DNA of 64,000 nucleotides from Alphaproteobacteria bacterium (GCA_965216605.1 CBDCGG010000002.1:239645-303644); one strand, 5' to 3'. Shown: positions 6,019 through 42,947, counted from the first letter of the stretch. Notes: a model not told the origin generated them from the letters alone. Translations and numbers: made by a program.

Positions 6019-6705
6019 GTGTCGCAAGGTGTGTCAAATGTTTTTCCCGCAGCAGAGCAACGGAGGTCGCCATCGCTATCGCCATCACCGATTCTCGCTC
6101 CTGCCGAGGCTGTGGTGGAGGCACGCAAGGTTGCCGAGGGGTGTCGGACGCTCGAAGAGCTCGAGCTTGCGGTGCGAGCCTTCGCTCTCTGTTCGTTGAA
6201 AGAGGGCGCGCGCAACACGGTCTTCGCCGAGGGCAATCCCAACGCCGAGCTAGTCGTCGTCGGCGAAGCGCCGGGGCGCGAGGAAGACGAACAGGGAAAA
6301 CCCTTCGTAGGCGAGAGCGGACAACTGCTTTCGCGCATGCTCCATGCGATCGGCATCGCTAGCCGCGAGCAATACCGCGTTACCAATTTGGTCTATTGGC
6401 GCCCACCGGGCAATCGTCAGCCGAGCTTGGACGAGATCGCCGTCTGCTACCCCTTCTTTCTGCGTCACATGGCGCTTGTGAAACCGCGTTGGCTTTTGTT
6501 GCTGGGCAATGTTGCGATGCAAAATGTTCTCTCTGAGCGAAGGGGGATCACGAAGCTACGCGGACAATTATTTCCGATCACGCTGGGGGCAACGCCTGTT
6601 GTGGCATTGCCCTCCTTTCATCCCTCCTACCTGCTGCGCACGCCCGTAAAGAAGGCGGCGGCGTGGCACGATCTACTAATGTTGCGACGCGCTATGAATA
6701 AATGA
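6019..6705 (+). CDS. uracil-DNA glycosylase family 4 catalytic core (likely the 3' part of a frameshifted longer gene starting about 5762)
   Basis: RNTVFAEGNPNAELVVVGEAPGREEDEQGKPFVGESGQLLSRML...VYWRPPGNRQP...LPSFHPSYLLR are the family-4 UDG signature blocks. The ORF 5762-6199 in another frame encodes an LL.W..EAG.D-type N-terminal segment typical of alphaproteobacterial family-4 UDGs, so a frameshift is inferred near 5950-6020. Confidence 0.75.
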   Translation: MSQGVSNVFPAAEQRRSPSLSPSPILAPAEAVVEARKVAEGCRTLEELELAVRAFALCSLKEGARNTVFAEGNPNAELVVVGEAPGREEDEQGKPFVGESGQLLSRMLHAIGIASREQYRVTNLVYWRPPGNRQPSLDEIAVCYPFFLRHMALVKPRWLLLLGNVAMQNVLSERRGITKLRGQLFPITLGATPVVALPSFHPSYLLRTPVKKAAAWHDLLMLRRAMNK

Positions 6706-6773
6706 TTTTGGAATAAGTGATTTTGGAATAAATGATTTTGGAATAAGTTATTTTGGAATAAGTGATTTTGGCA
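6701..6773. repeat. AT-rich 15-bp tandem repeat (aaNtgattttggaata), about 4.8 copies, between udg stop and thrC start
   Basis: Seen directly: aatgattttggaata / agtgattttggaata / aatgattttggaata / agttattttggaata / agtgattttgg. Confidence 0.9.
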
Positions 6774-6898
6774 GGTTGCATCGCACCCTAGAAAAGAGTA
6801 GAATGGTGCGAAGAAATAATATAAGCATGATACCTGATGGGGGGATTTATCCCCGACATGATCCACGACAAACACAACAACACGAGCGAGTTTGCAGC

Positions 6899-9322
6899 AT
6901 GAACTACATGCACTACAAATCCACGCGCGGGGGCGAGAAAAAAACCTTCGCGGATATTCTCAGTAGCGGTCTTGCTGCGGACGGCGGTCTGTACGAGCCT
7001 ACGAGTTGGCCGCACCACCGACGGCTACGAAGTTTCTTAGCGAGCGGCCCCACCTTCCCTGAGGTCGTGGGAGCGGTTGTGGGCGTTTTCGCCGGACGGC
7101 GCAGTTTGACGCATCTTGATTTTACGGCGATTGCTCGCAAGGCCTTTGAACCTTTTCACAGCCGCGCTGTCGTGCCTCTGCGCGAGGTGGAGCATAATCT
7201 TTGGCTGCTCGAACTTTTTCACGGACCGACGCTCTCGTTCAAGGATATTCCGTTGCAATTCTACGGACAGCTTCTGGAAGCCCTTGCGTCCGAGAGGAAA
7301 CGGCTGCTGATTATGATCGGCGCAACATCGGGCGACACGGGCTCTGCCGCCATCGAGGCGATGAAACCCGTTCGCGGCGTGCGATTGTTCATGCTGCATC
7401 CGAAGGATCGTATCTCTGCGTTGCAGCGCAAGCAAATGACAAGCGTCCAATCCCCGAACATCTGCAACATCGCCGTCGAGGGCAGCTACGACGATTGCCT
7501 CCGTCTGGTCAAGGCGGCGGCGCAATCGGAGGCGATCAACGCGCGCGGACAGGTCTCGGCGGTCAACTCTTTCAATTGGATTCGCATTGCCGTGCAAAGC
7601 GCTATCTACCTCTACGCAGCCCAACAGATTCCGCGACGCGCCAAGTCGGTGCGCTTTGCGCTCGCCAGCGGCAACTTCGGCAACGCTTACGCCGGCTATG
7701 TTGCCAAAAAGCTGGGTGCGAACATCGAGGGTCTTACGCTCGCGGTCAGTCACAACGACTTCCTGCATAACCTTTTTCAACAAGGCTCTGCTGCAAGCGG
7801 CGAGGTCGTCCCCAGCCTTGCGCCCAGCATCGACATCATGACGCCGAACAACGTCGAGCGATTGCTCTTCCGCAGCCTTGGCGACAGCGCGCGCCAATGG
7901 AGCAAGGTGCGCGAACAAGCGGAAGAAAGCGGGACGCTCCGCGTGCCGAAAGGCGCGTTGCGTTCGGAGATCTTTCGCTTTTTCCGCACGCAACGTTTCG
8001 ACGACGAGCAAATTCTCGAAGCAATGAGCCAAGCCTACGACAGCGTCGGAGAACCCCTTGACCCCCATTCTGCCATTGCGCTCAAGGCGGCAAAGGATGC
8101 GAGCTTCGAGAAGGAAAAGCAGGCGAAAAAGAAAAAGGCGCACGATATGTGCACCATCGCCCTTGCCACTGCTTCTGCGGCGAAGTTTCCTGAGACGGTG
8201 GAGCGCGCGATCGGGGCAAGACCGCACATGCCCTTGAGGCTTGCCGAGCTCGAGACGAGGGCGGAGGAGTACGAGACAATCGCTGCCGACTTCGAGGCGC
8301 TAGAAAGCATTATTGTTGCGCGATTGCAAAAACCTCTCGATTCGGACGCAAGTGTTCAGGATGCAAGTGTTCAGGATGCAAGCGTTCAGGCGGCAAGCGT
8401 TCAGGCCGCAAGCGTTCAGGAACCTGCAAGCGTTCAGGATGCAAGCGTTCAACCTGCGGAGGGACTTGCCGCAACCGCTGCGGGCTCGGCGACAATTGCC
8501 GAGGACGCTGTGGCAAGCGAAACAGCGTTAGAGGTAGCGCAAGAGGACGAGGAGAAGCGCGAGGAGGGAGAGGACGAAAATTTGGCAGGAATGCCCGAAA
8601 AGATGTCCGAGGCGAATCTTGCCATGGGTACTGCATCCGCCCTCTTCTCTTCGGTACAGCCTCCAGAGATGCCTGCTGTAGCTGCGTTGACGGATGAGGA
8701 AGATTCGTTAGAGAAGAAGATCGCCAAACTGAAAGAACAGACGGCGCAACTCGACGAGAGTCTCGACGATCCTATGACTGCTGCTTCCTCGTCTTTGACG
8801 AGCGATCCTTTCGCCGCTCCTTCCGCCGCAGATTTCTCAGCCACCTCTAGCTTGGAGGACACGCCGAGGGAGAGCGATCCTTTTGCGACACCCCTCCCCT
8901 CTCAGCAAGAAGACGAAACGCAAGAAGACGAGCAGACAGATTTCTCTGCAGAAATAGGAACGACAGAAACAGAAACGACGATGGAAACGATGGGAAGCGA
9001 CGGCGGCGATGATGGCATGGTTTCGTTGGCTGACGCGGCGGAGCAGGGGCAGGCATCGTTGCAAGAGAAGATCGCCAAGTTGAAAGAGCAGAGCGAGAAG
9101 CTTGATGAGGTAGCGGAGACGCCATACTCGCCTTTCGAGGAAGCAAAGGAGGAGACGAGCGAGATCGTTGGGGCAGAGAATTTCTTCTCTCAACCTGCGC
9201 CTCCATCTCAAAATGAGGCTGTCGAATCGAGCGAAACATCTTCTACGGCATCTTCTACGACACCCTCTACGACACCTTCTTGGGAAACACCTCTGGCGGA
9301 AGATCAGGAAGAAAAAACTTAA
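6899..9322 (+). CDS. thrC: threonine synthase (ThrC) fused in-frame to about 330 aa of acidic, repeat-rich low-complexity C-terminal tail
   Basis: MNYMHYKSTRGGEKKTFADILSSGLAADGGLYEP... is the ThrC N-terminal signature. The PLP fold continues to about residue 470 (..SAAKFPETV..). The frame then stays open through (DASVQ)x7, a duplicated KIAKLKEQ(T/S)xxLDE block and a long D/E/S/T-rich region to the stop at 9322. Confidence 0.8.
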   Translation: MNYMHYKSTRGGEKKTFADILSSGLAADGGLYEPTSWPHHRRLRSFLASGPTFPEVVGAVVGVFAGRRSLTHLDFTAIARKAFEPFHSRAVVPLREVEHNLWLLELFHGPTLSFKDIPLQFYGQLLEALASERKRLLIMIGATSGDTGSAAIEAMKPVRGVRLFMLHPKDRISALQRKQMTSVQSPNICNIAVEGSYDDCLRLVKAAAQSEAINARGQVSAVNSFNWIRIAVQSAIYLYAAQQIPRRAKSVRFALASGNFGNAYAGYVAKKLGANIEGLTLAVSHNDFLHNLFQQGSAASGEVVPSLAPSIDIMTPNNVERLLFRSLGDSARQWSKVREQAEESGTLRVPKGALRSEIFRFFRTQRFDDEQILEAMSQAYDSVGEPLDPHSAIALKAAKDASFEKEKQAKKKKAHDMCTIALATASAAKFPETVERAIGARPHMPLRLAELETRAEEYETIAADFEALESIIVARLQKPLDSDASVQDASVQDASVQAASVQAASVQEPASVQDASVQPAEGLAATAAGSATIAEDAVASETALEVAQEDEEKREEGEDENLAGMPEKMSEANLAMGTASALFSSVQPPEMPAVAALTDEEDSLEKKIAKLKEQTAQLDESLDDPMTAASSSLTSDPFAAPSAADFSATSSLEDTPRESDPFATPLPSQQEDETQEDEQTDFSAEIGTTETETTMETMGSDGGDDGMVSLADAAEQGQASLQEKIAKLKEQSEKLDEVAETPYSPFEEAKEETSEIVGAENFFSQPAPPSQNEAVESSETSSTASSTTPSTTPSWETPLAEDQEEKT
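8345..8452 (+). repeat. 15-bp in-frame tandem repeat x7 (gaYgcaagYgttcag, encoding DASVQ) inside the thrC tail
   Basis: Seen directly in sequence. Confidence 0.9.
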
Positions 9323-9350
9323 GCCCTTTGATTGACGAATGCAAAACATC

Positions 9351-9404
9351 GCGTGCGTAGCGCGCGTTCGTTTACTCGTCAAAACGCGAGTCCCGTTTTT
9401 TTGG
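9351..9404 (+). repeat. partial copy (3' end) of the dispersed hairpin-rich element (see 42612-42858), directly after the thrC stop; ends in CCCGTTTTTTT
   Basis: gcgtgcgtagcgcgcgttcgtttactcgtcaaaacgcgagtcccgtttttttgg aligns to the 3' end of copy A (gcgcgcaagcgcgcgttcgtttacgcgtcaatgcgcgagtcccgttttttgg). Confidence 0.7.
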
Positions 9405-9457
9405 ACACTGCCGCTATCTGTTACAAAGTTAAAAAGCGATCAAAGCGATCAAAGCAA

Positions 9458-12391
9458 TCAAGCCGCCCAGTTCTCCCCAATCCGATAGTCCACCTCCAAA
9501 ACAACCGACAACATCTGTTGCGGCTCAGCGGCGCGTTGCATAATCTCCTGAACAGCCCGCGCACTCGCCTCCGCTGTCCCCCGCGGTGCCTCCAAAACAA
9601 TCTCGTCATGAACCTGCAAAAGCATGCGCGTGCCATACAAAGCATGCGTCTTCTGCCCCAAAGCGCGGTGAATGCGAATCATCGCCTGCTTGACAATGTC
9701 CGCCGCCGTTCCCTGTATCGGCGCGTTGATCGCCTGCCGCTCAGCATGCAAACGCATGTTCTGCTTGCGATCAGCAATCAAAGGTAGGTGAATCTTCCTG
9801 CCAAACAATGTTTCGACATAACCCCGCTTACGACAAAGCTCGACGGTTTTCGCACGATAGTCTCTGAGCTGAGGGTAACGAGCAAAGTAGAGGGCAATCA
9901 AATCCTGCGCCTCCGCCTCGCCTATACCCAACTGCTTCGACAAGCCAAAGCGCGAGATGCCATAAAGCAATCCGAAGTTCACCGCCTTGGCAGCCCGACG
10001 CTGCTCCTTAGATATTTCTTGAGAAACTTTTTTTCCTTTTGCGCCAAACATTTCCTCTGCGGTTGCCTGATGGATATCGCGTCCTTCTGCGAAGCTTTCC
10101 AACATACCCTCGACGGAGGCGATGGCGGCGACGAGGCGCAGTTCTATCTGCGAATAATCCAACGACACTAAAGCGAATCCCTTCTCTGCGATGAATGCAC
10201 TGCGGATGCCGCGCCCTTCCTCGTTGCGCACGGGAATGTTTTGCAAGTTCGGCTCGGAGGAAGCGAGCCGTCCCGTCTGCGCGCCGCTCAAAGAAAATGA
10301 GGTGTGGATGCGTCCCGTCGCCACTTGCACCTCGCGCGGTAGTGCCTCGGTATAGGTCGAGCGCAACTTCGAGATATGCCGCCATTGCAAGACCTGTTCT
10401 GCGATCTCGTGTCCCTGCTCTGCCAAACCCTCCAAAACACGGCTGTCGGTCGCATACTGCCCGCTCGGTGTCTTCTTAGCTCCCTTCAGCTTGAGACGCT
10501 CGAACAGCACTTCTCCCAACTGCTTCGGCGACGAGAGCAAAAAATCTCCTCCTGCCAAGGCGACGATCTGTTTTTCTAACGCGCTTGTCTGCTTTTCAAA
10601 GCGCGCGCTCAAAGCTTGCAAGACATCCACATCGATCAGCACTCCGCAGCGTTCCATAGCGACGATCACCGGAATCAGAGGACGCTCCAAAGTCTCGTAG
10701 ACCTGCTTACCGCCCTCGTGCAGCAGACGCGGAGAAAAAATTTCGTGCAAGCGTAGCGTAGCCCAAGCGTCCTCTGCGGCGTAAGCGCTCGCCGCCTCGA
10801 TCGAAACGCGATCGAAGCAGACCGCCTTGCGCCCTGTGCCGACGATCTCCTTGTAGCGCGTCAAGCGATGCTGCGCATGCTTATCTACGAGCAGGTCCAA
10901 GCCGTGTCCATGCTTACCGCCGTCAAGCACCGCCGACATCAGCAGCGTATCGTCGCAAGGTGTTATTTCTAGTGCGTATTTTTGCAAGATCGCTGCGTCG
11001 AATTTCAAATTATGTCCGACCTTGAGCGTCGCGCGATCTTCCAACAGAGGCTTCAAGACAGCCAAAGCTTCGTCGAGCGCGATCTGCTGCTCTAATAAAT
11101 TTCCGTCAGCATCGCGATGCGCCAACGGCAGATAGGCAGCGCGCTTGCTTACAGAAGAGTCCGCAGAATAGTCCGCAGAATATTCTATGCACATTGCAAC
11201 GCCGACTAGTTCTGCCGCGATGATATTCAACCCCGTCGTCTCGACATCGATCGCTAGGCAACCTTGCTCTCGTGCTTTGTTGCAAAAATCTTCTAAGGCT
11301 TTTTTATCGCGCAAGGTCTCGATACTGTGGGGAGGGCTTTGTGCCTCGCCCTCCTTGCCCTGCTCACCCTGCTCGCCCTGCTCGCCCTGCTCACCCTGCT
11401 GTGCGTGGAGCAGGCTGTTCAAGCCCTGCTTATATTGCGCTTGGTGCGAATCCAAGTCGCGTACTAATGAGCGAAACTCCTGTTGTTGGAAGAAGGCGCG
11501 CAGCTTCTCGCGTTCGGGACGCGGAGCTTCTAGTGTCTCCAAGGAGAGCGGACAGGGCGCGTCGTCGGCAAGGGATACCAAGTTATAACTTAGGCGCGCT
11601 TGCTCTGCGTGTTGTTGCAACGCCTCGCGCCGTTTAGGCTGAGTGATCTCTGCTGTCCTTGCCAATAAGGACTCCAGGTCTCCGAAGCGCTGGATGAGCT
11701 CGGCTGCGGTTTTGACCCCGATGCCCGGCACGCCCGGCACATTGTCGCTGCTGTCGCCTGCGAGTGCCATTACATCGCGTACTTTGTTCGGCGGCACGCC
11801 GAATCGTTGCTGTACGGAAGCCTCGTCGATGACGACTCCCTTGACGGGGTCGCGCAAGAACAGCTGTCCGTCTTCGACGAGCTGCATCATGTCTTTGTCG
11901 GAAGAGCACACCTCGACGCGCCAGCCCTTGTCGCGCGCCAAGCGAGCGTAGAGGGCGATGAGGTCGTCCGCCTCGAAGCCTTGCTGCTCTACATTAGGCA
12001 TGGAGAAGGCTTCGGCTGCCGCGCGCACGAGGGGAAATTGCGCCTTGAGTTCAGGCGGTGTCTCGCTGCGGTTCGCCTTGTAGGCGGGGTAGAGCGTGTT
12101 GCGAAAGCTCTTGCCCTTGGCATCGAAGACGACGAGGAAACGTTGCTGCGGACGCTCCCGCAACAGCTGCGCGAGCATGCGCGTAAATCCGTAGAGCGCG
12201 CCTACGGGCGTACCGTCCGCGCGCGCCATCGGCGGCAGGGCGAAGAAGGCGCGAAAGACATAGCCGTAGGCATCGATCAGCGTCAAATCCGATGCGGGTT
12301 GCGTCGGCGGAGTTTGTGGCTGCGAGGATTGTGGCTGCGAAGTTTGCGTCTGCGAGTTGTCGCCGCGTGGGCTTGGCTGTTCTGCCACCAA
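9458..12391 (-). CDS. polA: DNA polymerase I (PolA)
   Basis: 977 aa with 5'-3' exonuclease N-terminus (LIDAYGYVFRAFFALP), 3'-5' exonuclease and Klenow polymerase motifs (RRAAKAVNFGLLYGIS, LLQVHDEIVLE). Contains an in-frame (GEQ)x4 repeat insertion and a Q/P/S/T-rich N-terminal extension. Confidence 0.9.
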   Translation of the reverse strand: MVAEQPSPRGDNSQTQTSQPQSSQPQTPPTQPASDLTLIDAYGYVFRAFFALPPMARADGTPVGALYGFTRMLAQLLRERPQQRFLVVFDAKGKSFRNTLYPAYKANRSETPPELKAQFPLVRAAAEAFSMPNVEQQGFEADDLIALYARLARDKGWRVEVCSSDKDMMQLVEDGQLFLRDPVKGVVIDEASVQQRFGVPPNKVRDVMALAGDSSDNVPGVPGIGVKTAAELIQRFGDLESLLARTAEITQPKRREALQQHAEQARLSYNLVSLADDAPCPLSLETLEAPRPEREKLRAFFQQQEFRSLVRDLDSHQAQYKQGLNSLLHAQQGEQGEQGEQGEQGKEGEAQSPPHSIETLRDKKALEDFCNKAREQGCLAIDVETTGLNIIAAELVGVAMCIEYSADYSADSSVSKRAAYLPLAHRDADGNLLEQQIALDEALAVLKPLLEDRATLKVGHNLKFDAAILQKYALEITPCDDTLLMSAVLDGGKHGHGLDLLVDKHAQHRLTRYKEIVGTGRKAVCFDRVSIEAASAYAAEDAWATLRLHEIFSPRLLHEGGKQVYETLERPLIPVIVAMERCGVLIDVDVLQALSARFEKQTSALEKQIVALAGGDFLLSSPKQLGEVLFERLKLKGAKKTPSGQYATDSRVLEGLAEQGHEIAEQVLQWRHISKLRSTYTEALPREVQVATGRIHTSFSLSGAQTGRLASSEPNLQNIPVRNEEGRGIRSAFIAEKGFALVSLDYSQIELRLVAAIASVEGMLESFAEGRDIHQATAEEMFGAKGKKVSQEISKEQRRAAKAVNFGLLYGISRFGLSKQLGIGEAEAQDLIALYFARYPQLRDYRAKTVELCRKRGYVETLFGRKIHLPLIADRKQNMRLHAERQAINAPIQGTAADIVKQAMIRIHRALGQKTHALYGTRMLLQVHDEIVLEAPRGTAEASARAVQEIMQRAAEPQQMLSVVLEVDYRIGENWAA

Positions 12392-12395
12392 AGTT

Positions 12396-13811
12396 CTAGC
12401 GCGAGGGTAGGGTTATGATGTCGTCGATTCGCCCTGCTTGCAAATGCTCGAAGGAGGATTGCAACAACGATCCTAGCGGACGGACGCGCGGTCCTGTGGG
12501 TTCCATCAAGACATAGGTTTTTCCCTGATGGGTGTAGGATGCCTCTCCCTCAAGCGGCTGCATCTCGACACCCAAGAAGGCGTGTTTGGGAACAAGAAAG
12601 ATCGCAACGGAGCGGTCTTCCGCCAGCAGACCAAGGAGTCCCATCATGGCAGTCGATTTAGAATCGCAGTCGCCCTTGTTTTGGGCAAGCATCTCCAACG
12701 GCGGCGAAAAGCCGATGAAGCCACGCACCTTGCCTTGCGTCAGATCGTTATAAGGAATGTTCTGAAAGAAGTGCAAAACCTCGGCAACCCGCTCGCGCTC
12801 GCTTTTGCCCTTGAAGGTCGCGCGAAAGGCGCGCGCGACAGGACGCAGACGCTCCTGCGCTTGGATTGCGATGCGTGCGTAATCGATCAGCGTTCGATCC
12901 GCTTGCTTCTTCGACGGGAGAAGATAGTGCAGGGCGTAGAACTGGGATTTTTTGATCTTCATGTCGGCGATGACTTCCTTGCGCGCCAAGGATAGGCGTT
13001 CAGAAGTCTGTGCGAGCAAGGCACGAGCGCGCTCCTGGCTACCCTCGTTAAACTTTTTCACTTCCACCATGTCGCTTTTGTGACGCGCGAGACGCGAGCG
13101 CAAACGCGCGTTCGTCTCGCTGATAGTTTGGGAGGCACGCGCGCGTGTGCCTGTGTCGTAGGTGCGCTTCTCGTTTTTCAAAGGAAACTTGATGCCGCCC
13201 GCTTCCCTGACCACTCTGAACCGCAAGCCTTCGGGCAAGGTGGCGTTTGCTTGAGCGACGATCGTCTCTAGGTCGGCGTAGAACTTTTTCAATATGTCGT
13301 CCGTGTTGCGAGCAAAGCTCATTCCGGGCAGCAGCGACGAGATTCGGATATCCAACAGATTCTCTCCTGCCAGTTGCAGTTTCAAATCCAGCGTCGAGGG
13401 CTCTTTGAGCGTCATGGAAACAACCCTTGAGCCGAGCCTGCCGTTGAAGGTTGCGATCGATGTTTGCAGAGAGGCTATTCCCGCATCGAATCCCGCTTGC
13501 AAGGCAACGAGGTATTTTGCTGCCGTCTCCTGCCCTGCGAGCAGGATGAAGTCGCTAGCCGCACGATCGAGCGCGGCGTTGTCTAGCAACAAGGCTTGCG
13601 ATTCTTCGATCGTTTTGCGCGGCAAGGCAAAGTCTATCTCCTCGCTGCGCTTTACGCTGTCTTGATAGATGTAGCTAAAGACGATCTTTTGGTCCTTCTC
13701 CTCCTTGTCAAAGTGCAACTGCTTCGCCGCTGAAGATGCAGGGGCAAGCGCACCGCTTGCAAGCAACAGCGACAACAACATCCCGCGCATCGTTTTCTTG
13801 TTCATCGGCAT
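12396..13811 (-). CDS. secreted hypothetical protein with C-terminal transglutaminase-like Cys-His-Asp/Glu core
   Basis: Signal peptide (MRGMLLSLLLASGALAPASSA). C-terminus NKGDCDSKSTAMMGLLGLLAEDRSVAIFLVPKHAFLGVEM...YVLMEPTGP fits G.C....LL..LGI.aR.V....HA...V......DPT of transglutaminase-like cysteine peptidases. Start chosen at an internal Met; 13790 is equally possible. Confidence 0.45.
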   Translation of the reverse strand: MPMNKKTMRGMLLSLLLASGALAPASSAAKQLHFDKEEKDQKIVFSYIYQDSVKRSEEIDFALPRKTIEESQALLLDNAALDRAASDFILLAGQETAAKYLVALQAGFDAGIASLQTSIATFNGRLGSRVVSMTLKEPSTLDLKLQLAGENLLDIRISSLLPGMSFARNTDDILKKFYADLETIVAQANATLPEGLRFRVVREAGGIKFPLKNEKRTYDTGTRARASQTISETNARLRSRLARHKSDMVEVKKFNEGSQERARALLAQTSERLSLARKEVIADMKIKKSQFYALHYLLPSKKQADRTLIDYARIAIQAQERLRPVARAFRATFKGKSERERVAEVLHFFQNIPYNDLTQGKVRGFIGFSPPLEMLAQNKGDCDSKSTAMMGLLGLLAEDRSVAIFLVPKHAFLGVEMQPLEGEASYTHQGKTYVLMEPTGPRVRPLGSLLQSSFEHLQAGRIDDIITLPSR

Positions 13812-13965
13812 CGTTTTTTTGTCCGTTCCATTGCTTGCGAAGTATAGCAAAGGACGACCGCCGTGCATCCGTTTTTTGAGAGCTGTTTGTCTGATCCTCG
13901 AAGCTTGTGCTAGGGTGAGAGCTACAACCTAGGCGACCGACAATAGCAACACGAGTTCTCCCGCC

Positions 13966-17374: not shown

Positions 17375-17412
17375 GTCTGTCTGTTGCCTTCGCGCAACAG
17401 ACAGGCTTTTTA
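17375..17412 (+). terminator. rho-independent terminator after lolD
   Basis: GTCTGTCTGTTGC-cttcgc-GCAACAGACAGGC stem-loop followed by TTTTTAT. Confidence 0.6.
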
Positions 17413-17502
17413 TAATGAAGGAAAAACGCAAGACGAGCGAGCCTTAAGATTAGTCTTGGACGAAGTGAGTTTTGCGTTCTGTTTTTTGTCAAACAAAGCT
17501 CG

Positions 17503-23020: not shown

Positions 23021-24424
23021 ATGGGCGATATCACGAACGACACCAGCGATAGCACGGGCGAGACGACACAGAAAATCGATCCGCCCACCCCTCTGCCTAA
23101 AGAAGACGCGCCGAAAATCTTGCCTGCGAAGGGGGAGCGACTTGTGCTTGCGCGCGCCTATCGTCCGAGGCGATTCGAGGATTTGATCGGGCAAGAGCAG
23201 GCACGCAGAATTGTCGAGAATGCTTTGCGTAGCGATCGGTTGCATCACGCGATTCTGCTGTCAGGACCGCGCGGCACGGGCAAGACGACGATGGCGCGTT
23301 TGATAGCGCGCGCGGTGAATTGCGGCGGCAGGAAGGATGGGGTTGATCCTTGCGGGACATGTTCCGCTTGCGAGGCGATGGCGAGGGGGGAGGTGATCGA
23401 TGTGGTCGAGATCGACGCTGCCTCGCACACGGGGGTCGATGGGGTGCGTGAGATTGTCGATGGGGCGGGATATCGCCCTGTGATGATGGCGTGTCGTGTT
23501 TATATTATTGACGAGGTTCACATGCTATCGCGCGCGGCGTTCAACGCGCTACTGAAGACTTTGGAGGAGCCTCCGCCGCACTTGCGCTTTCTGTTTGCGA
23601 CGACGGAGGTTGAGAAGGTTCCTCTGACTGTGTTGTCTCGTTGTTTGCGGCTAGAGTTGAAGCGATTGGACAGCGAGACTTTGGCAAAGCACTATACTTT
23701 TGTCAGCGAGCAGGAGGGATGGCAGATCGAGCGAGAGGCGGCGGTGGCGATCGCGCGTGCGGCGGAGGGATCGGTGCGTGATGGGTTATCGTTGTTGGAT
23801 TGCGCGATGGTAGAGAGCGAGGGAAAGAGCATTGTGTTAGAGCGGGTTCGAGAAATGCTGTTTCTTTCCGACGGGCATGCTTTGTACGATTTGTTGGAGG
23901 CGATTGTGGATGGAAAATTGTCGGTGGCGTTGGAGCATTTGGATACTTTGATGTTGAAGGGTGCTCAGGCGGAGCGATTGTTGCGCGAGATGATGGAGCG
24001 ATTGCATCGTTTGTCGAGGATGAAGGTTGGGGAGAGCAACAAGGCGACGCAAGACAGGAATGATGCCTTGATATTAGAGCCTAGCGATCGGGAGCGTGGG
24101 GGGAAATTAGCTGAGGGGTTATCTTTGGCGTCGTTGTCGAGGTTGTGGCAGATTGCTTTACGGGGTTATGAGGAGTTGCGATTGGCGCCGCATCCTCGTT
24201 CGGCGTTGGATATGGTTGTTGTGCGATTGGTGGGAGCGGCGGGCATGCCTTTGCCGCAGGAGGTTTTAGCGAGATTGGCGCGGGGGGAGGAAGAAGCGAA
24301 GGGGGGAGAGACGGAGGCGAAAGAGGCGAAAGAAGAGAAAAAAGAAGAAAAGAAGGGGGGGGGATATGAGGAGAAGTTGCGGGAGACTTTTCCGGGGGCG
24401 ACCATTGAGGAGCGTGCCGTGTAG
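23021..24424 (+). CDS. dnaX: DNA polymerase III subunit gamma/tau (DnaX), short form with K/E-rich low-complexity tail
   Basis: RAYRPRRFEDLIGQEQ...LLSGPRGTGKTT (Walker A), Zn-finger Cys cluster CGGRKDGVDPCGTCSAC, SRC motif (LSRCL). Only 467 aa, ending in EEAKGGETEAKEAKEEKKEEKKGGG. Confidence 0.9.
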   Translation: MGDITNDTSDSTGETTQKIDPPTPLPKEDAPKILPAKGERLVLARAYRPRRFEDLIGQEQARRIVENALRSDRLHHAILLSGPRGTGKTTMARLIARAVNCGGRKDGVDPCGTCSACEAMARGEVIDVVEIDAASHTGVDGVREIVDGAGYRPVMMACRVYIIDEVHMLSRAAFNALLKTLEEPPPHLRFLFATTEVEKVPLTVLSRCLRLELKRLDSETLAKHYTFVSEQEGWQIEREAAVAIARAAEGSVRDGLSLLDCAMVESEGKSIVLERVREMLFLSDGHALYDLLEAIVDGKLSVALEHLDTLMLKGAQAERLLREMMERLHRLSRMKVGESNKATQDRNDALILEPSDRERGGKLAEGLSLASLSRLWQIALRGYEELRLAPHPRSALDMVVVRLVGAAGMPLPQEVLARLARGEEEAKGGETEAKEAKEEKKEEKKGGGYEEKLRETFPGATIEERAV

Positions 24425-24582: not shown

Positions 24583-25065
24583 TCACACCGCGGTCATGCC
24601 CTCCCCCATCTCCGCAACCCCATGCACAACAATAATCACATGCGTCAACCCACCCTCATCACTCGTACTCATCTCCAAACAAGCCACACAACCCAATCCA
24701 CCCGCACGAGCCAAAATAATCCTCCGCGCACCCCCGCTCAATCGCACACAGGGCTTCCCGCTCGCAAAACGAACGCTCTCAATATCACGCCAATAAACCG
24801 CCGCATTGCCAACCCCAACACCCAGCCGCCTCACCCCCGTCCCTAATGCCTTCCCAATACACTCCTTCGCAGCAAAACAACTCGCTAAATAACTTACCCC
24901 TCGAACCCCCATACCACCTCCCATACCACGCCCCATGCCCCGACGACGCGCCTCCGCAACCTCGCCCTCCGCAAAAACACGCGATAAAAAACGATCGCCA
25001 TAACGCTCAACTAACCTAGCAATACGAGCATGCTCACACAAATCCGTGCCAATCCCCAAAATCAC
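24583..25065 (-). CDS. acpS: holo-[acyl-carrier-protein] synthase (AcpS) with in-frame Gly/Met repeat insertion
   Basis: MILGIGTDLCEHARIARLVERYGDRFLSRVFAEGE is the AcpS signature. Insertion RRGMGRGMGGGMGVRG from a short tandem repeat. Confidence 0.85.
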   Translation of the reverse strand: MILGIGTDLCEHARIARLVERYGDRFLSRVFAEGEVAEARRRGMGRGMGGGMGVRGVSYLASCFAAKECIGKALGTGVRRLGVGVGNAAVYWRDIESVRFASGKPCVRLSGGARRIILARAGGLGCVACLEMSTSDEGGLTHVIIVVHGVAEMGEGMTAV

Positions 25066-25892: not shown

Positions 25893-26405
25893 TCAGCTGC
25901 TCTCCTTGTCCGCAACCTCAACATCTCCACCATCGGAGCCACCATCGGCATCGCTCGCAGAAACAGCCTCGCCGCCAGCCTCGTTGGTAGCCTCGTCGGT
26001 AGTCGCTGTCGCTTCCTCCGCCTCCGCTCCGAAGATAGCCTCTGCATGGATTTCAGGCAGAACCTCTGTAGCATGTCCCTCGAAAGAAACTACACCTTCA
26101 GCAGCAAGGCTCTCACTCACCCCTACTCCCCCCTCCTCGCCCTCTTCGGCTGCCGCCTCGATCGGAGAGAATCGCCGATGGTTTCTCACGATCGAATCTT
26201 CCAAAGCCTCGATATCCAAATTGCCCTGCATGATCTCGCGCAAGGCAATCACGGCGTTTTTCTCATGCTTTATCACACGATCACGCTCGACCGTGGGCTC
26301 GACCCCGCTCGCCAACTCGCGCCCGCGCTGTGCGCCGCACATCACCAAGCGAAAACGATTCGCTATTAAATCAACACTGTCTTCTATCGACACACGCGCC
26401 ATCAC
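25893..26405 (-). CDS. rpoZ: DNA-directed RNA polymerase subunit omega (RpoZ) with long acidic C-terminal tail
   Basis: MARVSIEDSVDLIANRFRLVMCGAQRGRELASG matches the RpoZ N-terminus; the D/E/A/G-rich extension is typical of alphaproteobacterial omega. Confidence 0.8.
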   Translation of the reverse strand: MMARVSIEDSVDLIANRFRLVMCGAQRGRELASGVEPTVERDRVIKHEKNAVIALREIMQGNLDIEALEDSIVRNHRRFSPIEAAAEEGEEGGVGVSESLAAEGVVSFEGHATEVLPEIHAEAIFGAEAEEATATTDEATNEAGGEAVSASDADGGSDGGDVEVADKESS

Positions 26406-29770: not shown

Positions 29771-30277
29771 TTGCCTGCTGCGTTCTTGAGCCTTTTTGCT
29801 TTTTGCGCGCGGATTATTTTAACGACGATGGCGGATATTTCTTCTGACAAGAACTTGTGGCGACGCTTGTGCGTTTCGTTGCGCGCGTGGGTTATCGATC
29901 ATTGGCGCGGAGATTTATCGCTTGTCGAGTCTTTTTGGATCAACTGTTTTTTCGTAAACTTGGGAGCGGGCATTGTATTGCGTCGCCTTGCGCCTTCGCC
30001 AGCGGGCGTGATGGTGTTCGGCGTGTTGTCGGTGGGGATTTCTGTGTGGCAGTTGGTGGGCTTGTGGCGATCGGCGCACAAGAACAGCAAGAAGCAGCCG
30101 TTTTGGTCGGCGATTGTGAAGGGAGTGTGCGTGATGAATGTTGTCGTTTTTGTGATGGTGATGCTGGCGGTGTTGTTCGGCGACTTCGGAGGGGGGGGAA
30201 TCAATTTGCCTGCCGATTTGCCTGCCGATTTGCCTGCCGATTTACCTGGGCAGAGCATACCGAGCGGCTTTCTTTAA
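29771..30277 (+). CDS. hypothetical small integral membrane protein with C-terminal (LPAD)x4 repeat
   Basis: Three predicted hydrophobic segments. C-terminus NLPADLPADLPADLPG encoded by a 12-bp tandem repeat x4. Real start may be the internal Met at 29828. Confidence 0.45.
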   Translation: MPAAFLSLFAFCARIILTTMADISSDKNLWRRLCVSLRAWVIDHWRGDLSLVESFWINCFFVNLGAGIVLRRLAPSPAGVMVFGVLSVGISVWQLVGLWRSAHKNSKKQPFWSAIVKGVCVMNVVVFVMVMLAVLFGDFGGGGINLPADLPADLPADLPGQSIPSGFL

Positions 30278-30377: not shown

Positions 30378-30490
30378 GGGCTGAAGTTGGGGGGCTGAAG
30401 TTGGGGGGCTGAGCTTGGGGGAGCTGAAGTTGGGGGCTAGAGAGGGCATAGGGGGATGCAGGGGGAAAATGGGGGATACAAATGGGGGAA
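30378..30490 (+). repeat. G-tract-rich tandem array (gggctgaagttgggg x about 4, then GGGGG every 10-12 bp) upstream of the OMP-like gene
   Basis: Seen directly; at least 9 runs of G4-G6 on the plus strand within about 110 bp. Confidence 0.85.
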
Positions 30491-31703: not shown

Positions 31704-32739
31704 ATGAGCGAAAAGAAGCAGAGGATCGATCCTATTCGGCGGGTACGCGGGATGCAGGATTTTCTGCCTGAGCGCGCGGCGGGGATGCGCAGGATTGCGC
31801 GGATTGCGGAGGATGTTGCGAGGCTGTACGGATTCGAGCGCATAGAGATTCCTATATTAGAGAGGGCAAGTTTGTATCGGAGGTCGTTGGGTTTAGGGAG
31901 CGATGTTGTGATGAAGGAGATGTATGCCTTTGAGGATAAAAAAGACAAGAATGACAATAGCGAGGAGTTATGTTTGCGTCCTGAGGGGACGGCGGGGGTG
32001 ATGCGGATGTTGATCGAGAACGGATTGACGCAGACGCTACCGCAGCGATGGTTTTACGAAGGGGCGATGTTTCGTAGGGAGCGTCCGCAGAAAGGACGAT
32101 TTCGCCAATTTCACCAGTGCGGCGTGGAGTTTTTGACTACTCACTACGATTTCATAACAGTCGACTTAGAGGTATTGAAATGCGCTTGGCATTTTTTGAA
32201 AGAATTAGGATTAGCAAAACAAGGATACTTAAATTCAATTGGCTTGGAACAATTGAGGAAAGAGCGCAATACAACATATTGCTTACGCAACACTTTCAAG
32301 AATATAGAACGATGCTCTTTGCTAGAGAGTGTTGAACGCTTCAACGAGGTCAACGCCTTGCGCATTTTTGATTCTAAAGACCCAAGACCAAGAGGCGATT
32401 GAAAACGCACCAGACTTTGAATTAAACGAAACATCAAAAGAAAATATTAAAACAATAAAAAGCTGGTTAACAGAACATTTAAACATACCTTATGAATCGA
32501 TTCTAGCTTGTGCGCGGATTGGATTATTACAGCAACCTTGTTACGAATTTGTTGAAAAAGGATCGACACGCGAACAAGCAACGCTGTTAGCGGGGGGGCG
32601 GTACAATGGCTTGTGCGAACAAATTAGCGGACGCGCTGACAACCCCCCTTTGACGGGCGTGGGCTGGGCAGCAGGATTGGAACGTTTGCTTAATTTATCT
32701 TCATTGTCGAGTAATTTTAATTCAGAGATAAAAATATAA
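31704..32739 (+). pseudogene. hisS: histidyl-tRNA synthetase (hisS), compositionally chimeric, frameshifted and 3'-degraded
   Basis: First frame (31704-32402): HisRS motif 1 and motif 2 (FRRERPQKGRFRQFHQCGVEFL). GC drops from about 60% to about 35% near 32150 inside the gene. Second frame (32329-32739) continues HisRS (..GGRYNGLCEQISG..PLTGVGWAAGLERL) after a frameshift. The anticodon-binding domain is not intact; only stop-interrupted remnants lie in the AT-rich DNA that follows. Confidence 0.6.
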
Positions 32740-33359: not shown

Positions 33360-34520
33360 ATGAGTACACAAGACGAGTTCTGGCGCGAGCGATTCGCAAC
33401 CTCCCTCCGTCAAGAGGAAACAACCCAACTCGCCCTAAACAATCCCACAATCCCTAATGCCGAGCGCGTAACCCTCGCAAAAACACTCGCATCCCTAACC
33501 CCCCTTTGTAACGAAATCCGCTCCTACAATAATCTAACCCAACAAAAAACCTCCGCCCAAAACCTCCTCGCCGAAGAACCAGATTTGGATAAAGCGCTCA
33601 AATCCCTCGCCTCAGAAGAAATTATAACCCTAGAAAAACAACGCACCGCCATCCTAGACAATATTCAAACCCTCATGCTCGACTCATCGGAGGAAGAAAT
33701 AAATACCGCCATCCTAGAAATTAGACCCGGTACAGGCGGCGAGGAAGCCGCCCTCTTCGCAGCCGACCTCCTATCTATGTACCAACGATACTCCGCAAAT
33801 AATTCCTACAAGTTCGAGGCTATCTCCATACAACAAACCCAACAAGGCGGTATCAAAGAAGCCATCGCTACCATCGAAGGACCCCGCGCCTTCACAAGAC
33901 TCTCGGTAGAATCAGGCGTGCATCGCGTCCAACGAATCCCCGAAACCGAAACACAAGGCAGGATCCATACCTCCGCCGCAACCGTCGCCATCCTACCGCA
34001 AACCTCAGAAGTACAACACCCCCTCCTAGAACAAGACCTCCGAACAGAAACCTTCCGCGCACAAGGCGCAGGAGGACAGCATGTCAATACAACCGACTCC
34101 GCCGTGCGTATAACCCATATACCCTCAGGACAAGTCGTACAATGCCAAGACGAAAAATCTCAACACCGAAACCGCGAAAAAGCACTCAAAGTTCTCACCG
34201 CACGAGTGCAACAACATATCCAAGATTCACAAAATGCCGAACGCTCCGCAACACGCAATTCACAAATAGGTAGTGGTGATCGCTCAGAGCGAATCCGTAC
34301 TTATAACTTTCCGCAAAACCGAATCACCGACCACCGCATCTCCCTCACCCTCTATAAACTCGATCGCATCATGCAAGGCGACGGGTTGGAGCTACTACTC
34401 AATCCCCTCGAAGCCGCCCGAAAATCCGAGCGCATAACCCAACTCCAAGAACAAAGCCCCCTGCCAAAAACCTCCCCCTCTCCCAACAAGCAAGCAAACA
34501 AAAAAAATGCCTCGCCTTGA
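33360..34520 (+). CDS. prfA: peptide chain release factor 1 (PrfA)
   Basis: GGQ motif (FRAQGAGGQHVNTTDSAVRITHIPSG), PxT-type decoding region, RF-1 length. Coding strand is strongly C+A-rich. Confidence 0.9.
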   Translation: MSTQDEFWRERFATSLRQEETTQLALNNPTIPNAERVTLAKTLASLTPLCNEIRSYNNLTQQKTSAQNLLAEEPDLDKALKSLASEEIITLEKQRTAILDNIQTLMLDSSEEEINTAILEIRPGTGGEEAALFAADLLSMYQRYSANNSYKFEAISIQQTQQGGIKEAIATIEGPRAFTRLSVESGVHRVQRIPETETQGRIHTSAATVAILPQTSEVQHPLLEQDLRTETFRAQGAGGQHVNTTDSAVRITHIPSGQVVQCQDEKSQHRNREKALKVLTARVQQHIQDSQNAERSATRNSQIGSGDRSERIRTYNFPQNRITDHRISLTLYKLDRIMQGDGLELLLNPLEAARKSERITQLQEQSPLPKTSPSPNKQANKKNASP

Positions 34521-35482
34521 GCTCAACAAACTCCGCGAACCTCATAAACTCCGCGACCTCCGCGACCTTCATAAAAATTGGCTACTTCGTCTGAAAGATG
34601 CCCACCTAGAAGATCCCCAAGCAGAACTCAACGCGCTGTGGCGAACAATAACAAACGATCCGCTACCCCTGCTCGCTTGCTCTGAAATCACCCCGCGCCT
34701 CGCACAACGCCTGACGCATCTAGTCGAACGCCGAGCCGCGCGCGAACCCCTTGCCCGAATCACCAAGCAGCGCGAGTTCGCCTCCCTGCCCTTCCATCTC
34801 AACAAAGCCTGCCTCATACCCAGAGCCGACAGCGAAACGCTACTAGAAGCTGTCCTTCATCTCACCGCCTCCCCGCACCCCGTTCGCACCATCCGAGAAC
34901 TGGGTTGCGGCAGCGGATGCATCGTCCTCGCCCTCGCTGCAAACCTCTGCGACAAACCTCAACGCCCCGCCCTGCAAGCCTGCGACATCTCCGCCCAAGC
35001 CCTCGTCGCCGCCCGCCTTAACGCACAAAGCCTACAAAAAAAACTTCCCGTCCAATTCTTTCGACAAAACTGGAGCGATAAAAAACATCGCGCAAAAAAT
35101 AACGCAAAAGAGATAACGGAAGAGCAACGGAAGAGATAACGGAAGAGATAACAGAAGATATCGAAGAAACCAACTCGACCTGCTCTTCGCCAATCCCCCC
35201 TACATTCGCCGCTTTGAGCGCATCATGCTCTCGCGCGAAGTTTCCCGCTTCGATCCACCGCTCGCGCTGGACGGCGGCTTCGATGGCATGCGCTCCTTTC
35301 GACACATCCTTCGCTACGCGCAACAAACTTTGCGCTGCGGAGGCTTTCTGCTGCTCGAACACGCCCCCGACCAAACGCGCATGCTCAAACCCCTCGCGCA
35401 ACGAAAACAATTCCGATACCTCCGAACGCTCAAAGATCTGGCAGGCAGGGACAGAGTCTCCGTTTTCAGAAAGCACTCCTAA
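34507..35482 (+). pseudogene. prmC: release factor glutamine methyltransferase PrmC/HemK, split by a frameshift inside a 12-bp tandem repeat
   Basis: Frame 1 (34507-35139) has the SAM-binding region (ELGCGSGCIVLALA). Frame 2 (about 35177-35482) has DLLFANPPYI...LDGG.DG. The shift falls inside cggaagagataa x about 5 at 35101-35160. Either a pseudogene or an assembly error in the repeat. Confidence 0.6.
35101..35160 (+). repeat. 12-bp tandem repeat (cggaagagataa-like) x about 5 inside prmC
   Basis: Seen directly; introduces TAA stops in one frame. Confidence 0.85.
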
Positions 35483-35590
35483 CAAAAAATCCTAACAAAA
35501 AGTCCTTGGCAAAAAATCCTTGCTTGATGCTCCCGCCTCGCCTATCCTAGTTTTAATAATTCCTCCCTTTGCACGAGCCCCTAAATATCC

Positions 35591-41140: not shown

Positions 41141-41188
41141 TGTCTATATTGCGCGCTGTCTATATTGCGCGCTGTCTATATTGCGCGT
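41141..41188. repeat. 16-bp tandem repeat x3 (tgtctatattgcgcgc) between thiolase stop and hemC start
   Basis: Seen directly. Confidence 0.9.
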
Positions 41189-42858: not shown

Positions 42859-42947
42859 CACCGCTCCCTCTTAAAATTCATAAACAAAGCGTAAGCGCTT
42901 TCCATGCCTTCGCAAGCCTTCGGCTTGCGAAGGCATGGCTTCTTGAA

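Follow-up and report, generated by a model that had tools for sequence, protein, structure and literature searches.

In-frame tandem repeats of 9–17 bp in core genes of an uncultured alphaproteobacterial clade

Why should a gene such as polA carry runs of short in-frame tandem repeats? To our knowledge, bacterial core proteins are usually almost devoid of repeat-encoded low-complexity inserts. The stretch of 64,000 nucleotides analysed here (the window) comes from a small-genome, uncultured alphaproteobacterium with 56% G+C, and a first-pass annotation had reported such inserts in many of its conserved genes, ascribing them to an active slippage or repeat-expansion process. Every repeat that it listed is present in or close to its place, as seen by Tandem Repeats Finder (TRF) and translation, which confirms that pervasive short tandem repeats in these core genes are real; its interpretation as a whole is supported. 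Beyond it, the trait is shared across the clade and the excess is limited to units of 12–17 bp. polA itself contains three arrays:

9458–12391, minus strand: polA, encoding DNA polymerase I (977 aa), with Pfam 5´-nuclease, 3´-5´ exonuclease and polymerase domains and PDB matches to Taq and Klenow
11345–11400, minus strand: polA (GEQ)4-GKEGE tract, aa 331–349, a 9-bp unit × ~5–6 inside a 27-bp × 2.1 copy (TRF and translation)
11152–11182, minus strand: polA YSADYSAD insert, aa 404–414, 12 bp × 2.6 (TRF), in a β-hairpin loop of the 3´-5´ exonuclease domain
12314–12356, minus strand: polA N-terminal tail repeat (SQTQTSQPQSSQPQT), 15 bp × 2.9 (TRF)

Read on the minus strand, 11345–11400 translates as QQGEQGEQGEQGEQGKEGE. 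In the PDB alignments the Taq 5´-nuclease match extends to aa 313 and the Klenow match begins only at aa 356, which places the GEQ tract in the linker between the 5´-nuclease and the 3´-5´ exonuclease; AlphaFold gives this region (aa 331–352) a pLDDT below 50. The tract is missing in relatives whose PolA is 77–84% identical and is degenerate in the 93% relative. The YSADYSAD tract faces an 11-residue gap in the Klenow alignment, and its residues 406–413, again with pLDDT below 50, are flanked by strands 395–404 and 415–422. The N-terminal tail repeat differs in every lineage compared, and at 12327 the window is longer by 15 bp (one unit) than L081, which with L084 is the locus of a closest relative. 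The protein thus has four hot spots, the N-terminal tail, the 5´-nuclease/exonuclease linker, the β-hairpin loop and a loop preceding the O-helix, and these coincide with the low-confidence segments (1–31, 331–352, 406–413 and 785–791) of an AlphaFold model that is good elsewhere. Among three assemblies of the same species (P0001), the only differences are point changes and, in the repeat tract, one gap of a single residue (3 bp).

The remaining arrays lie in other conserved genes and between genes:

6696–6771, unstranded: intergenic array between the UDG gene and thrC, 15 bp × 5.1 (TRF)
8344–8451, plus strand: thrC (DASVQ)×7, 15 bp × 7.0, opening a ~330-aa acidic C-terminal extension (TRF and translation)
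8806–8829, 8949–8979 and 9236–9280, plus strand: three more arrays in the thrC tail (TRF and translation)
24314–24355, plus strand: dnaX C-terminal EAK/EEKK repeat (EAKEAKEEKKEEKK), 9 bp, after domain III (which ends at aa 419)
24906–24936, minus strand: acpS GMGRGMGGGMG insert, 12 bp × 2.6 (TRF and translation)
25965–26002, minus strand: rpoZ C-terminal tail repeat, 12 bp × 3.2, after the Rpb6 domain (aa 13–65)
30204–30248, plus strand: (LPAD)×3.8 in the C-terminal tail of a membrane protein (168 aa) restricted to the clade, 12 bp (TRF and translation)
30378–30436, unstranded: intergenic array, 14 bp × 4.1 (TRF)
35987–36048, plus strand: ESQQ/ESQNP repeats in a DUF4167 protein, 12 and 15 bp (TRF and translation)
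40065–40100, minus strand: hemC C-terminal tail repeat (QTPQQTPPHTSPQPP), 12 bp × 3 (TRF and translation)
41141–41187, unstranded: intergenic exact array, 16 bp × 2.9 (TRF)
43469–43527, unstranded: array at the folK 5´ end, adjoining tRNA-Thr, 13 bp × 4.5 (TRF)
44549–44657, plus strand: lptF insert (...EREYSEIQDGEREYRARQDKARQDKARQ...; QDKARQDKAR) with nested 30-, 15- and 5-bp periods (TRF and translation)

The arrays of the polA N-terminal tail, polA YSADYSAD, the rpoZ and hemC tails and the intergenic periods 13, 14, 16 and 17 were absent from the first-pass list.

Most arrays outside PolA and AcpS fall beyond Pfam domain envelopes. The DASVQ array of ThrC lies past aa 513, the end of the THR4_C domain, and relatives have different repeats there; further along the same tail, a 78-bp window-specific insert at 9217 includes the 12-bp repeat. 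Solved AcpS chains show an 11-residue gap facing the GMGR insert, which is 8 aa shorter in another relative, L085. The dnaX repeat is 7 aa shorter in L085, and its RpoZ tail has (ET)n/(QR)n in place of the window repeat. The LPAD repeat is missing in 7 of 7 homologues of the 168-aa membrane protein. In lptF, the 30-aa insert is missing in an 86% identical relative. The variable segment that holds it, just before a conserved GE(R/Q)ARRE motif, has repeats of unrelated sequence (GEYEGEQ...) in other lineages, a few residues further downstream. The tolerance of inserts in loops and tails that had been proposed is borne out for PolA, by PDB alignments and AlphaFold, and for AcpS. The LptF insert is placed only roughly, between the β-strand region and the next transmembrane helix, because the PDB match is weak and the AlphaFold model has a mean pLDDT of 41: a phmmer search of LptF against the PDB gave no match, and a 9-sequence profile gave only a weak match to LptF (E = 0.0015).

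With a TRF score threshold of 50, the window contains 19 arrays (2.97 per 10 kb), and 18 of its 47 genes bear arrays. The controls were 67 loci, which are polA neighbourhoods of other genomes rather than whole genomes and were drawn from a scan that supplied 80 control loci; their density at the same threshold has a mean of 0.74 and a median of 0.44 per 10 kb (0.53 when GC-matched). About 4.8 arrays would thus be expected in the window at the control rate (naive Poisson 7e-7), and dinucleotide shuffles of the sequence give 0.05 per 10 kb, or ~0.3 in 64 kb. A density above what is typical, as first suggested, therefore holds at 4–5.6 times that of the control loci, and exact duplications of 12–17 bp are enriched as well. 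The syntenic loci of five relatives, whose PolA is 57–93% identical to that of the window and which lie on 1.5–1.9 Mb contigs, have 3.1, 10.5, 7.4, 4.8 and 11.7 arrays per 10 kb (TRF). Every clade locus is 4- to 16-fold above the control mean, and the repeat excess is a trait of the whole clade, sampled here over about 170 kb only, and not of the window alone. The window lies on a contig of 1,625,166 bp; complete genomes and HiFi reads are public, among them ENA ERZ25071281 ctg49611_89x_c (1.90 Mb, circular) and, in ERZ25069837, ctg28101_38x_l (1.94 Mb) and ctg28032_9x_l. A PolA scan of the genome collection found no close relative, the best match being 50% identical; the nearest PolA outside the clade (~50% identical) comes from Rhodospirillales-like bacteria. 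Each lineage has its own repeats at shared permissive spots.

The arrays change rapidly enough to differ between close relatives, as the idea of an active process had it. Over 37.9 kb aligned between the window and its closest relatives, L081 and L084 (90.1% identity), 13 of the 64 indels of at least 9 bp qualify as tandem events in the strict sense, with periods of 9–16 bp, mostly 12 and 15, and whole-unit tandem indels are seen in both genomes of the comparison, i.e. in both directions. The window is two units (30 bp) longer than L081 at 6733 in the array between the UDG gene and thrC, and relative to L084 it has an 18-bp window-specific tandem insert in the array at 41141–41187. The DUF4167 tract is 27 bp longer in the window than in L084, and L085 is without it; the L084 orthologue of the folK-end array has a 14-bp unit × 2.8. 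The GEQ, YSAD, LPAD, QDKAR, GMGR and ESQQ tracts are shorter or missing in relatives, and other repeats occupy those sites. With distant relatives as outgroups, gain and loss could be polarised for few events only, because the outgroup sites are too diverged.

Array density is about four times higher in non-coding DNA (18.7 per 10 kb) than in coding DNA (4.4 per 10 kb). The loci are about 88–90% coding, and by absolute number most arrays are inside genes. The period is a multiple of three in 53 of 60 arrays within coding sequence versus 17 of 35 outside (Fisher p = 6e-5), and the arrays pass through a selection filter on reading frame and position. One gene of the window shows what happens when an array is out of frame:

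34507–35497, plus strand: prmC, split over two frames (34507–35139 and about 35117–35497), with Pfam PrmC_N and methyltransferase domain in the first part
34549–34568, plus strand: 9-bp duplication (LRDLRD) in the prmC N-terminal part, within a 36-bp window-specific insert (TRF and comparison with relatives)
35108–35158, plus strand: 12-bp array in prmC (GGAAGAGATAAC-like, × 4.3), with one 14-bp and one 11-bp unit; the frame-break site

The N-terminal part of prmC is read in one frame up to the stop at 35137–35139, and the part containing NPPY is in the +1 frame; a stop at 35114–35116 closes that frame. The frame change therefore lies at 35117–35136, within the array. With the intact 307-aa PrmC of L084 as a tblastn query, the window gave two matches in different frames. 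prmC is uninterrupted in L084 and L085, and at the same place L084 has a shorter, in-frame repeat (KHRRRDNGKHRRRDS). This gene, broken in the window and continuous in two relatives, provides a case of the occasional inactivation that had been suspected. A hisS-like frame break is a further, putative case.

Unit size was examined by direct counts of exact two-copy duplications, which rule out that its lower bound is an artefact of the TRF threshold. In the window and the loci of four relatives, exact duplications of 12–17 bp are about 10- to 45-fold over the controls per unit length; those of 4–11 bp are at most ~3-fold over, mostly 1.0–1.6-fold, and there are none of 18–23 bp. Non-coding DNA has 21 exact duplications of 12–17 bp, 3 of 9–11 bp and none of 18–29 bp, and the ratio of the 12–17-bp to the 9–11-bp class differs between clade and controls with a Fisher p of 2e-10. 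Junctions were read in 33 arrays with at least two exact copies and a unit of at least 12 bp. In 23 of these the repeat runs at least 3 nt into a further copy, which by chance would happen in ~2%, and 7 of the 33 are blunt, with no microhomology; part of the apparent microhomology may be the remnant of a mutated extra copy. Among 106 arrays, 5 unit pairs are at least 80% identical (shuffles average 1.25): a 17-mer pair with 94% identity is the one close non-orthologous case, and the rest come down to an overlapping stretch, an orthologous site or a weak 87% match. Units at different loci are thus unrelated, so the arrays arise locally, and the spread of a small mobile or dispersed repeat element is ruled out. 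No connection was seen between the arrays and a ~250-bp hairpin-rich intergenic element.

The probable cause is a lineage-wide process of microhomology-primed slippage and duplication, filtered by selection, with the polA (GEQ)4 tract as one of its products. A nascent strand would slip, or switch template, between direct repeats of 3–5 nt spaced by about 1–1.5 helical turns, so that mostly 12–17-bp stretches would be duplicated head to tail. Once two copies are present, ordinary slipped-strand mispairing could alter the copy number, and the arrays would later gain and lose whole units; the head-to-tail excess, the whole-unit differences between relatives and the microhomology at junctions are those of VNTR-like slipped-strand loci. 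Such events would occur genome-wide, and selection would purge most of those in genes. The survivors there would be units divisible by three at termini, inter-domain linkers and surface loops, and the resulting inserts would be hydrophilic, of low complexity, quickly turned over and different between sister lineages; an occasional out-of-frame unit would kill the gene, as in prmC. Duplications of ~12–17 bases probably recur throughout the DNA of the clade, and therefore even DNA polymerase I has young repeat-encoded inserts. Altered replication or repair may have raised the rate in this lineage with its reduced genome, and weak selection may help the inserts to persist.

Two observations run against slippage: the size class is sharp, although simple slippage should fall off smoothly with distance, and the blunt arrays lack the expected microhomology. 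Both would be accommodated if a mechanism with a physical ruler made the first duplication and slippage only changed the copy number later. Staggered nicks 12–17 nt apart could be filled and joined, as happens in transposon target-site duplication and in excision footprints. Alternatively, a flap or repair patch of that length could escape processing and be ligated back, which would be the bacterial analogue of the yeast rad27 duplication mutator. UvrABC excision patches are 12–13 nt and bacterial primers about 10–12 nt, and duplications arise in yeast flap-processing mutants and, reportedly, in E. coli polA 5´-nuclease mutants too. We nevertheless regard a ruler as unlikely, given the microhomology of at least 3 nt at most junctions, the small counts and the lack of a transposase or nuclease candidate among the 47 window genes scanned with Pfam. 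Nor do the arrays look like target-site-duplication footprints: microhomology is common, the unit length varies over 12–17 bp and the 47 genes include no transposase domain. All acidic residues of the PolA 5´-nuclease (D40, D90, E140, D142, D143, D165, D167, D213 and D216) are kept in the alignments, which also speaks against a ruler; because these catalytic residues are conserved, a defective PolA 5´-nuclease was rejected as the cause. It is correspondingly improbable that the clade harbours an undescribed duplication mutator with a set length of 12–17 nt that continually seeds low-complexity inserts across the proteome. Its source would be either a staggered-cutting nuclease or a change, specific to the lineage, in how lagging-strand flaps or primers are processed or excision-repair patches are handled, and bacteria would then have a naturally occurring equivalent of the rad27 duplication phenotype of yeast.

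It is very unlikely that the repeats are selected features, either as contingency (phase-variation) loci or as functional low-complexity modules serving, for instance, host interaction or protein condensation. An array that precedes a gene, such as 6696–6771 before thrC, could modulate its expression, and the two helical motifs of the ThrC extension are conserved clade-wide, so some tails are functional. However, the arrays sit in cytoplasmic housekeeping enzymes, are denser still in non-coding DNA, have units unrelated between loci, and are unconserved in sequence between sister lineages; their units are of 9–17 bp and in frame, whereas contingency loci use frame-switching units of 1–8 bp. 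That the arrays are an assembly or sequencing artefact (assemblers can mis-size repeat arrays), or an ordinary repeat background that caught the eye (single control loci reach ~3 arrays per 10 kb), is hardly credible against the same array kind at the same hot spots in assemblies made independently for two samples (among them contigs with the labels 38x and 89x), the agreement among the three P0001 assemblies, the frame kept through 53 of 60 coding arrays, and the raised density in every clade locus.

With more than a third of the genes in 64 kb bearing such inserts, the lineage is a natural experiment on which sites of Pol I, AcpS, LptF and the clamp-loader subunit accept insertion and on how fast such inserts turn over, and it shows a mutational bias that both lengthens proteins and erodes genes during genome reduction. 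The 12–17-bp class, if genome-wide, would indicate a specific length-setting step in replication or repair. The arrays are also usable as strain-typing markers, and they call for caution when genes are predicted automatically or pseudogenes are called in these metagenome-assembled genomes.

A literature search on in-frame repeats within bacterial housekeeping genes in general returned nothing specific. Housekeeping proteins of Plasmodium falciparum, a eukaryote with an extremely AT-rich genome, contain Asn/Lys-rich low-complexity inserts that are thought to be born by slippage and tolerated. The likeness lies in hydrophilic, repeat-encoded inserts in loops of conserved enzymes that vary among close relatives; the present genome, in contrast, is bacterial with 56% G+C, and its inserts are rich in E, Q, S, G, K and D. 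Yeast rad27/FEN1 mutants and E. coli polA 5´-nuclease mutants acquire tandem duplications that range from a few to tens of bases and have short direct repeats at their flanks. The reference list of a FEN1 review (PMC3035468) includes a paper on FEN-1 'preventing duplication mutations'. The resemblance to these flap-processing mutators is in product only, as the PolA 5´-nuclease here keeps its catalytic acidic residues.

The host-restricted Candidatus Sodalis pierantonius has slippage-prone replication, with its indels classified against a close relative (Clayton et al., 2016; PMC4948707); slippage there is tied to short direct repeats, inactivates genes and has been attributed to lost recombination or repair components (PMC4948707). 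Both cases are a lineage-wide slippage phenotype that inactivates genes. In Sodalis, however, it is biased to deletion at G+C-rich repeats, whereas what is seen here is duplication together with the expansion of arrays. The contingency loci of Haemophilus and Neisseria have units typically below 10 bases, and frame shifts in them switch surface and host-interaction genes (PMC4948707). They share with our arrays the slipped-strand change in copy number of tandem repeats inside genes; here the units of 9–17 bp stand in frame in core cytoplasmic enzymes (polA, thrC, dnaX, acpS, rpoZ and hemC). In Ehrlichia ruminantium, as outlined in passages of PMC10710844 citing Collins et al. (2005) and Frutos et al. 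(2006), the coding ratio is very low (~64%), the intergenic regions are long and repeats are densest in non-coding DNA, as they are here. The two lineages are unrelated, the nearest PolA outside the clade being Rhodospirillales-like. In contrast to E. ruminantium, the window is roughly 85–90% coding, in-frame inserts pervade its housekeeping genes, and only units of 12–17 bp are in excess.

TRF returned 79 rows for the window, which merge into 69 arrays, 19 of them with a score of at least 50 and 13 with a score of at least 60. Of the 47 genes mapped in the window, 18 contain one or more arrays that score at least 40; the gene boundaries are our own ORF choices, and several gene-edge arrays may fall outside the true coding region. 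Every repeat that the first-pass annotation had named was recovered by TRF and translation, at or adjoining its position and with the translation described. The focal tract and the arrays found beyond that earlier list are as follows.

11345–11400, minus strand: (GEQ)4 tract of polA, reading QQGEQGEQGEQGEQGKEGE; its 9-bp unit lies within a 27-bp higher-order copy
12314–12356: array in the polA N-terminal tail
11152–11182: polA array encoding YSADYSAD
thrC tail: three more arrays
rpoZ tail and hemC tail: arrays
Intergenic DNA: arrays with periods of 13, 14, 16 and 17 bp

The window (G+C ~56%) encodes ordinary alphaproteobacterial housekeeping genes according to Pfam: flgK, flgI, an aminotransferase, a UDG-family glycosylase, thrC, polA, proS, lolCD, an ABC importer, dnaX, acpS, pdxJ, rpoZ, degP, mttB, prfA, prmC, a DUF4167 protein, hemY/D/C, a thiolase, folK, lptF/G, surA, pdxA, ksgA, gltX, rpe and purB. 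The RNA genes are two tRNAs, the SRP RNA and one 23S-5S pair (56305–59411, minus strand). The 4.6 kb upstream of this pair (59412–64000) contain no 16S rRNA, tRNA-Ile or tRNA-Ala, and rpe and purB come next. This arrangement suggests that the rRNA genes are unlinked, a condition found in many bacteria that are host-restricted or grow slowly. A 68-nt stretch of the 23S gene interior (58091–58158) recurs with 91% identity at 59788–59855, ~400 nt upstream of the gene. DnaX (23021–24424) has only 467 aa, and a short repeat-rich tail terminating in YEEKLRETFPGATIEE follows clamp-loader domain III, which ends at about residue 419. Since alphaproteobacterial tau subunits usually have ~600 aa, the usual C-terminal domains appear to be drastically shortened. 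Neither ybaB nor recR follows dnaX.

To measure density, arrays with a score of at least 50 and a period of at least 6 were counted per 10 kb. A scan of species-representative genomes, in which the best PolA match reached 50% identity and no close relative was found, provided the controls, 80 polA neighbourhoods of other bacteria (1.43 Mb in total). The window has 2.97 arrays per 10 kb, compared with a mean of 0.74 (median 0.44) for the 67 controls of at least 10 kb, 0.53 for the 32 controls of 50–63% G+C and 0.05 for dinucleotide shuffles of the window. The 19 observed arrays compare with 4.8 expected (naive Poisson, 7e-7). The density thus lies far above the typical value, as first proposed, at the scale of single neighbourhoods per genome.

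A PolA protein search revealed a tight group at 77–92% identity and a second group at ~57%, beyond which identity falls to ~50% (Kiloniellales, Inquilinus, Pelagibius and similar). These relatives come from ENA metagenome assemblies with contigs of 1.5–1.94 Mb, one labelled circular. Syntenic loci were taken from four related contigs, bringing the clade DNA examined to ~170 kb. Array density per 10 kb is 3.1 in L081, 10.5 and 11.7 in L082 and L085 (two stretches of one contig), 7.4 in L083 and 4.8 in L084, which puts the window towards the lower limit of the range in its clade; the trait is common to the whole clade. The longest array seen is in the UDG-family gene of the distant relative L083 (16811–17021), where a 12-bp unit repeated 17.6 times encodes (PINP)n in a protein of 413 aa, versus 228 aa in the window. 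L081, the closest relative, carries directly upstream of polA an extra 392-aa paralogue (8815–9993) of a 490-aa hypothetical protein that is single-copy in the window (12396–13868).

L082 and L083 both derive from ENA ERZ25069837, and L081 and L084 from ERZ25071281, so that each of the two samples holds two clade members. The first pair is distinct (PolAs 84% and 57% identical to the window PolA); the PolAs of the second cluster together at 90% identity or more. Such co-occurrence hints at a shared, possibly host-associated habitat.

The repeats turn over between lineages. All PolA length variation within the clade falls at four places, namely the N-terminal tail, the linker after the 5´-nuclease domain, one loop of the 3´-5´ exonuclease domain and one loop of the polymerase domain, and each lineage has its own repeats there: (GEQ)4 in the window only, and QAQKV, SGGS and SQK in the relatives' proteins P0004, P0010 and P0005, respectively. 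A 30-residue LptF insert of the window is missing in an 86% identical relative, and in another lineage this variable segment carries, a few positions downstream, a GEYEGEQ stretch of ~50 residues. The LPAD repeat of a 168-aa membrane protein was seen in the window alone, and DnaX, AcpS, RpoZ, the DUF4167 protein, HemC and the ThrC tail follow the same lineage-specific pattern. When 37.9 kb of the window was aligned to the two closest relatives (90.1% identity), 64 indels of at least 9 bp were found. Thirteen are strict tandem events (at least 75% identical to adjacent sequence at a fixed offset, null p ≤ 0.02), with the direction of gain or loss polarised for few, and several more are borderline. 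The 13 have periods of 9, 12, 13, 15 and 16 bp and occur in both genomes; the process has therefore been active since the divergence of these lineages.

The inserts were placed on protein structures. In PolA, the match to the Taq 5´-nuclease ends at residue 313 and the Klenow match begins at 356, which locates the GEQ tract (331–349) in the inter-domain linker. In the Klenow alignment, YSADYSAD lies opposite a gap of 11 residues; in the Taq alignment, the small insert KGKKVSQEI also lies opposite a gap, immediately ahead of the RRAAK...NFG helix. AlphaFold, given 14 sequences from the clade and outgroups, produced a model (mean pLDDT 77) whose segments with pLDDT below 50 include 1–31, 331–352, 406–413 (a turn between two strands) and 785–791, exactly the four hot spots. 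Solved AcpS chains show a gap of 11 residues opposite the AcpS repeat, and most other arrays are at termini, outside Pfam envelopes. The expectation that inserts sit in loops and tails was thus borne out for PolA and AcpS, whereas LptF gave only a weak placement.

Across the window and the four relatives' loci L081–L084, arrays number 4.4 per 10 kb in coding and 18.7 per 10 kb in non-coding DNA, and their period is divisible by three in 53/60 and 17/35 cases, respectively (Fisher p = 6e-5). This contrast is a sign that mutational input is genome-wide and is then filtered by selection. The unit sequence at one locus bears no relation to that at another, which indicates that the arrays arise in place and do not stem from the spread of an element.

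A 17-bp hairpin-forming unit (GGGGA-yAAAT-TCCCC) is tandem at two unrelated intergenic loci of one contig (L082 12944–13006 and L085 10641–10675; 94%), the one close case found of a unit shared by non-orthologous loci. A dispersed intergenic element of ~250 bp with several G+C-rich hairpins, such as GGGGGGGCAAAGCCCCCCC and CGCGCGCAAGCGCGCG, looks REP/BIME-like or MITE-like and is present across the clade in multiple copies per locus and in both orientations:

Window: 42633–42876 and 51805–52066; partial copies at 9359–9426 and 17401–17448
L081: 3374–3833
L084: 8910–9148 and 17965–19722
L082: 1496–1656

A 127-bp × 2.6 tandem array at L084 18138–18469 is related to it in sequence.

The first part of prmC is open until a stop at 35137–35139, and the NPPY-containing part is in the +1 frame, closed upstream by a stop at 35114–35116; the shift must therefore lie at 35117–35136, inside a 12-bp array that includes one 14-bp and one 11-bp unit. 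PrmC is intact (307 residues) in the close relative L084, where the repeat at this position is shorter and in frame, and gives one continuous match in L085. Subject to read confirmation, this supports the earlier suggestion that repeats occasionally inactivate genes. A hisS-like gene (31704–32685) is frameshifted near 32385, with residues 15–252 in one frame (66% identity), 254–350 in another (43%) and the last ~120 unrecognisable; the L085 orthologue (12085–13497) is an intact 470-aa protein, and the frameshift is either a second pseudogene or an assembly error. Threonine synthase (813–924 aa) bears an acidic, repeat-rich C-terminal extension of ~300–410 residues in 4/4 genomes (window 6776–9322, L081 13122–15563, L082 13124–15700, L083 13101–15875). 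Two short helical motifs, EEDSLEKKIAKLKEQTAQLD and SLADAAEQGQASLQEKIAKLKEQS, have been retained in every one of them, including the most distant, which suggests that the extension has its own function.

To avoid the TRF score threshold, exact duplications of two or more copies were counted directly. Enrichment over controls is 28-fold for 12-bp units, 46-fold for 14 bp, 22-fold for 15 bp and 9-fold for 17 bp; units of 13 and 16 bp are present in the clade and absent from controls. Units of 4–11 bp are enriched only 1.0- to 3.1-fold, mostly 1.0–1.6, and none of 18–23 bp was found in the clade. Non-coding DNA alone (17.6 kb) has 21 loci at 12–17 bp, 3 at 9–11 bp and none at 18–29 bp. Controls fall steadily (49, 8 and 3 loci at 9, 12 and 15 bp), versus 12, 24 and 7 in the clade (12–17 bp against 9–11 bp, Fisher p = 2e-10). 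Simple slippage should give a smooth fall-off with distance and not this peak. The junctions favour slippage, since 23 of the 33 arrays that contain two or more exact copies extend at least 3 nt into a further copy (chance, ~2%), although some overhangs may be decayed extra copies; seven junctions are blunt.

The best reading is a lineage-wide process in which microhomology would prime the first duplication, slipped-strand events would then expand the array, and selection would leave units that keep the frame and lie where inserts are tolerated. A rival, in which the first copy would be made by a mechanism with a physical ruler, keeps some weight given the discrete size class, but this class is its one positive support and the catalytic residues of the PolA 5´-nuclease are conserved. 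Adaptive repeats and artefacts are both unlikely explanations. The root cause of the process may lie in repair or replication functions that were lost or altered, in weak selection on a reduced genome, or in a combination of the two. The nearest precedents are Ehrlichia ruminantium, in which active expansion and contraction are described at non-coding tandem repeats (PMC10710844), and the slippage-prone genome of Candidatus Sodalis pierantonius (PMC4948707). The clade described here differs from them in that it is duplication-dominated, its repeats pervade core genes as in-frame inserts, and its excess is limited to one narrow size class.
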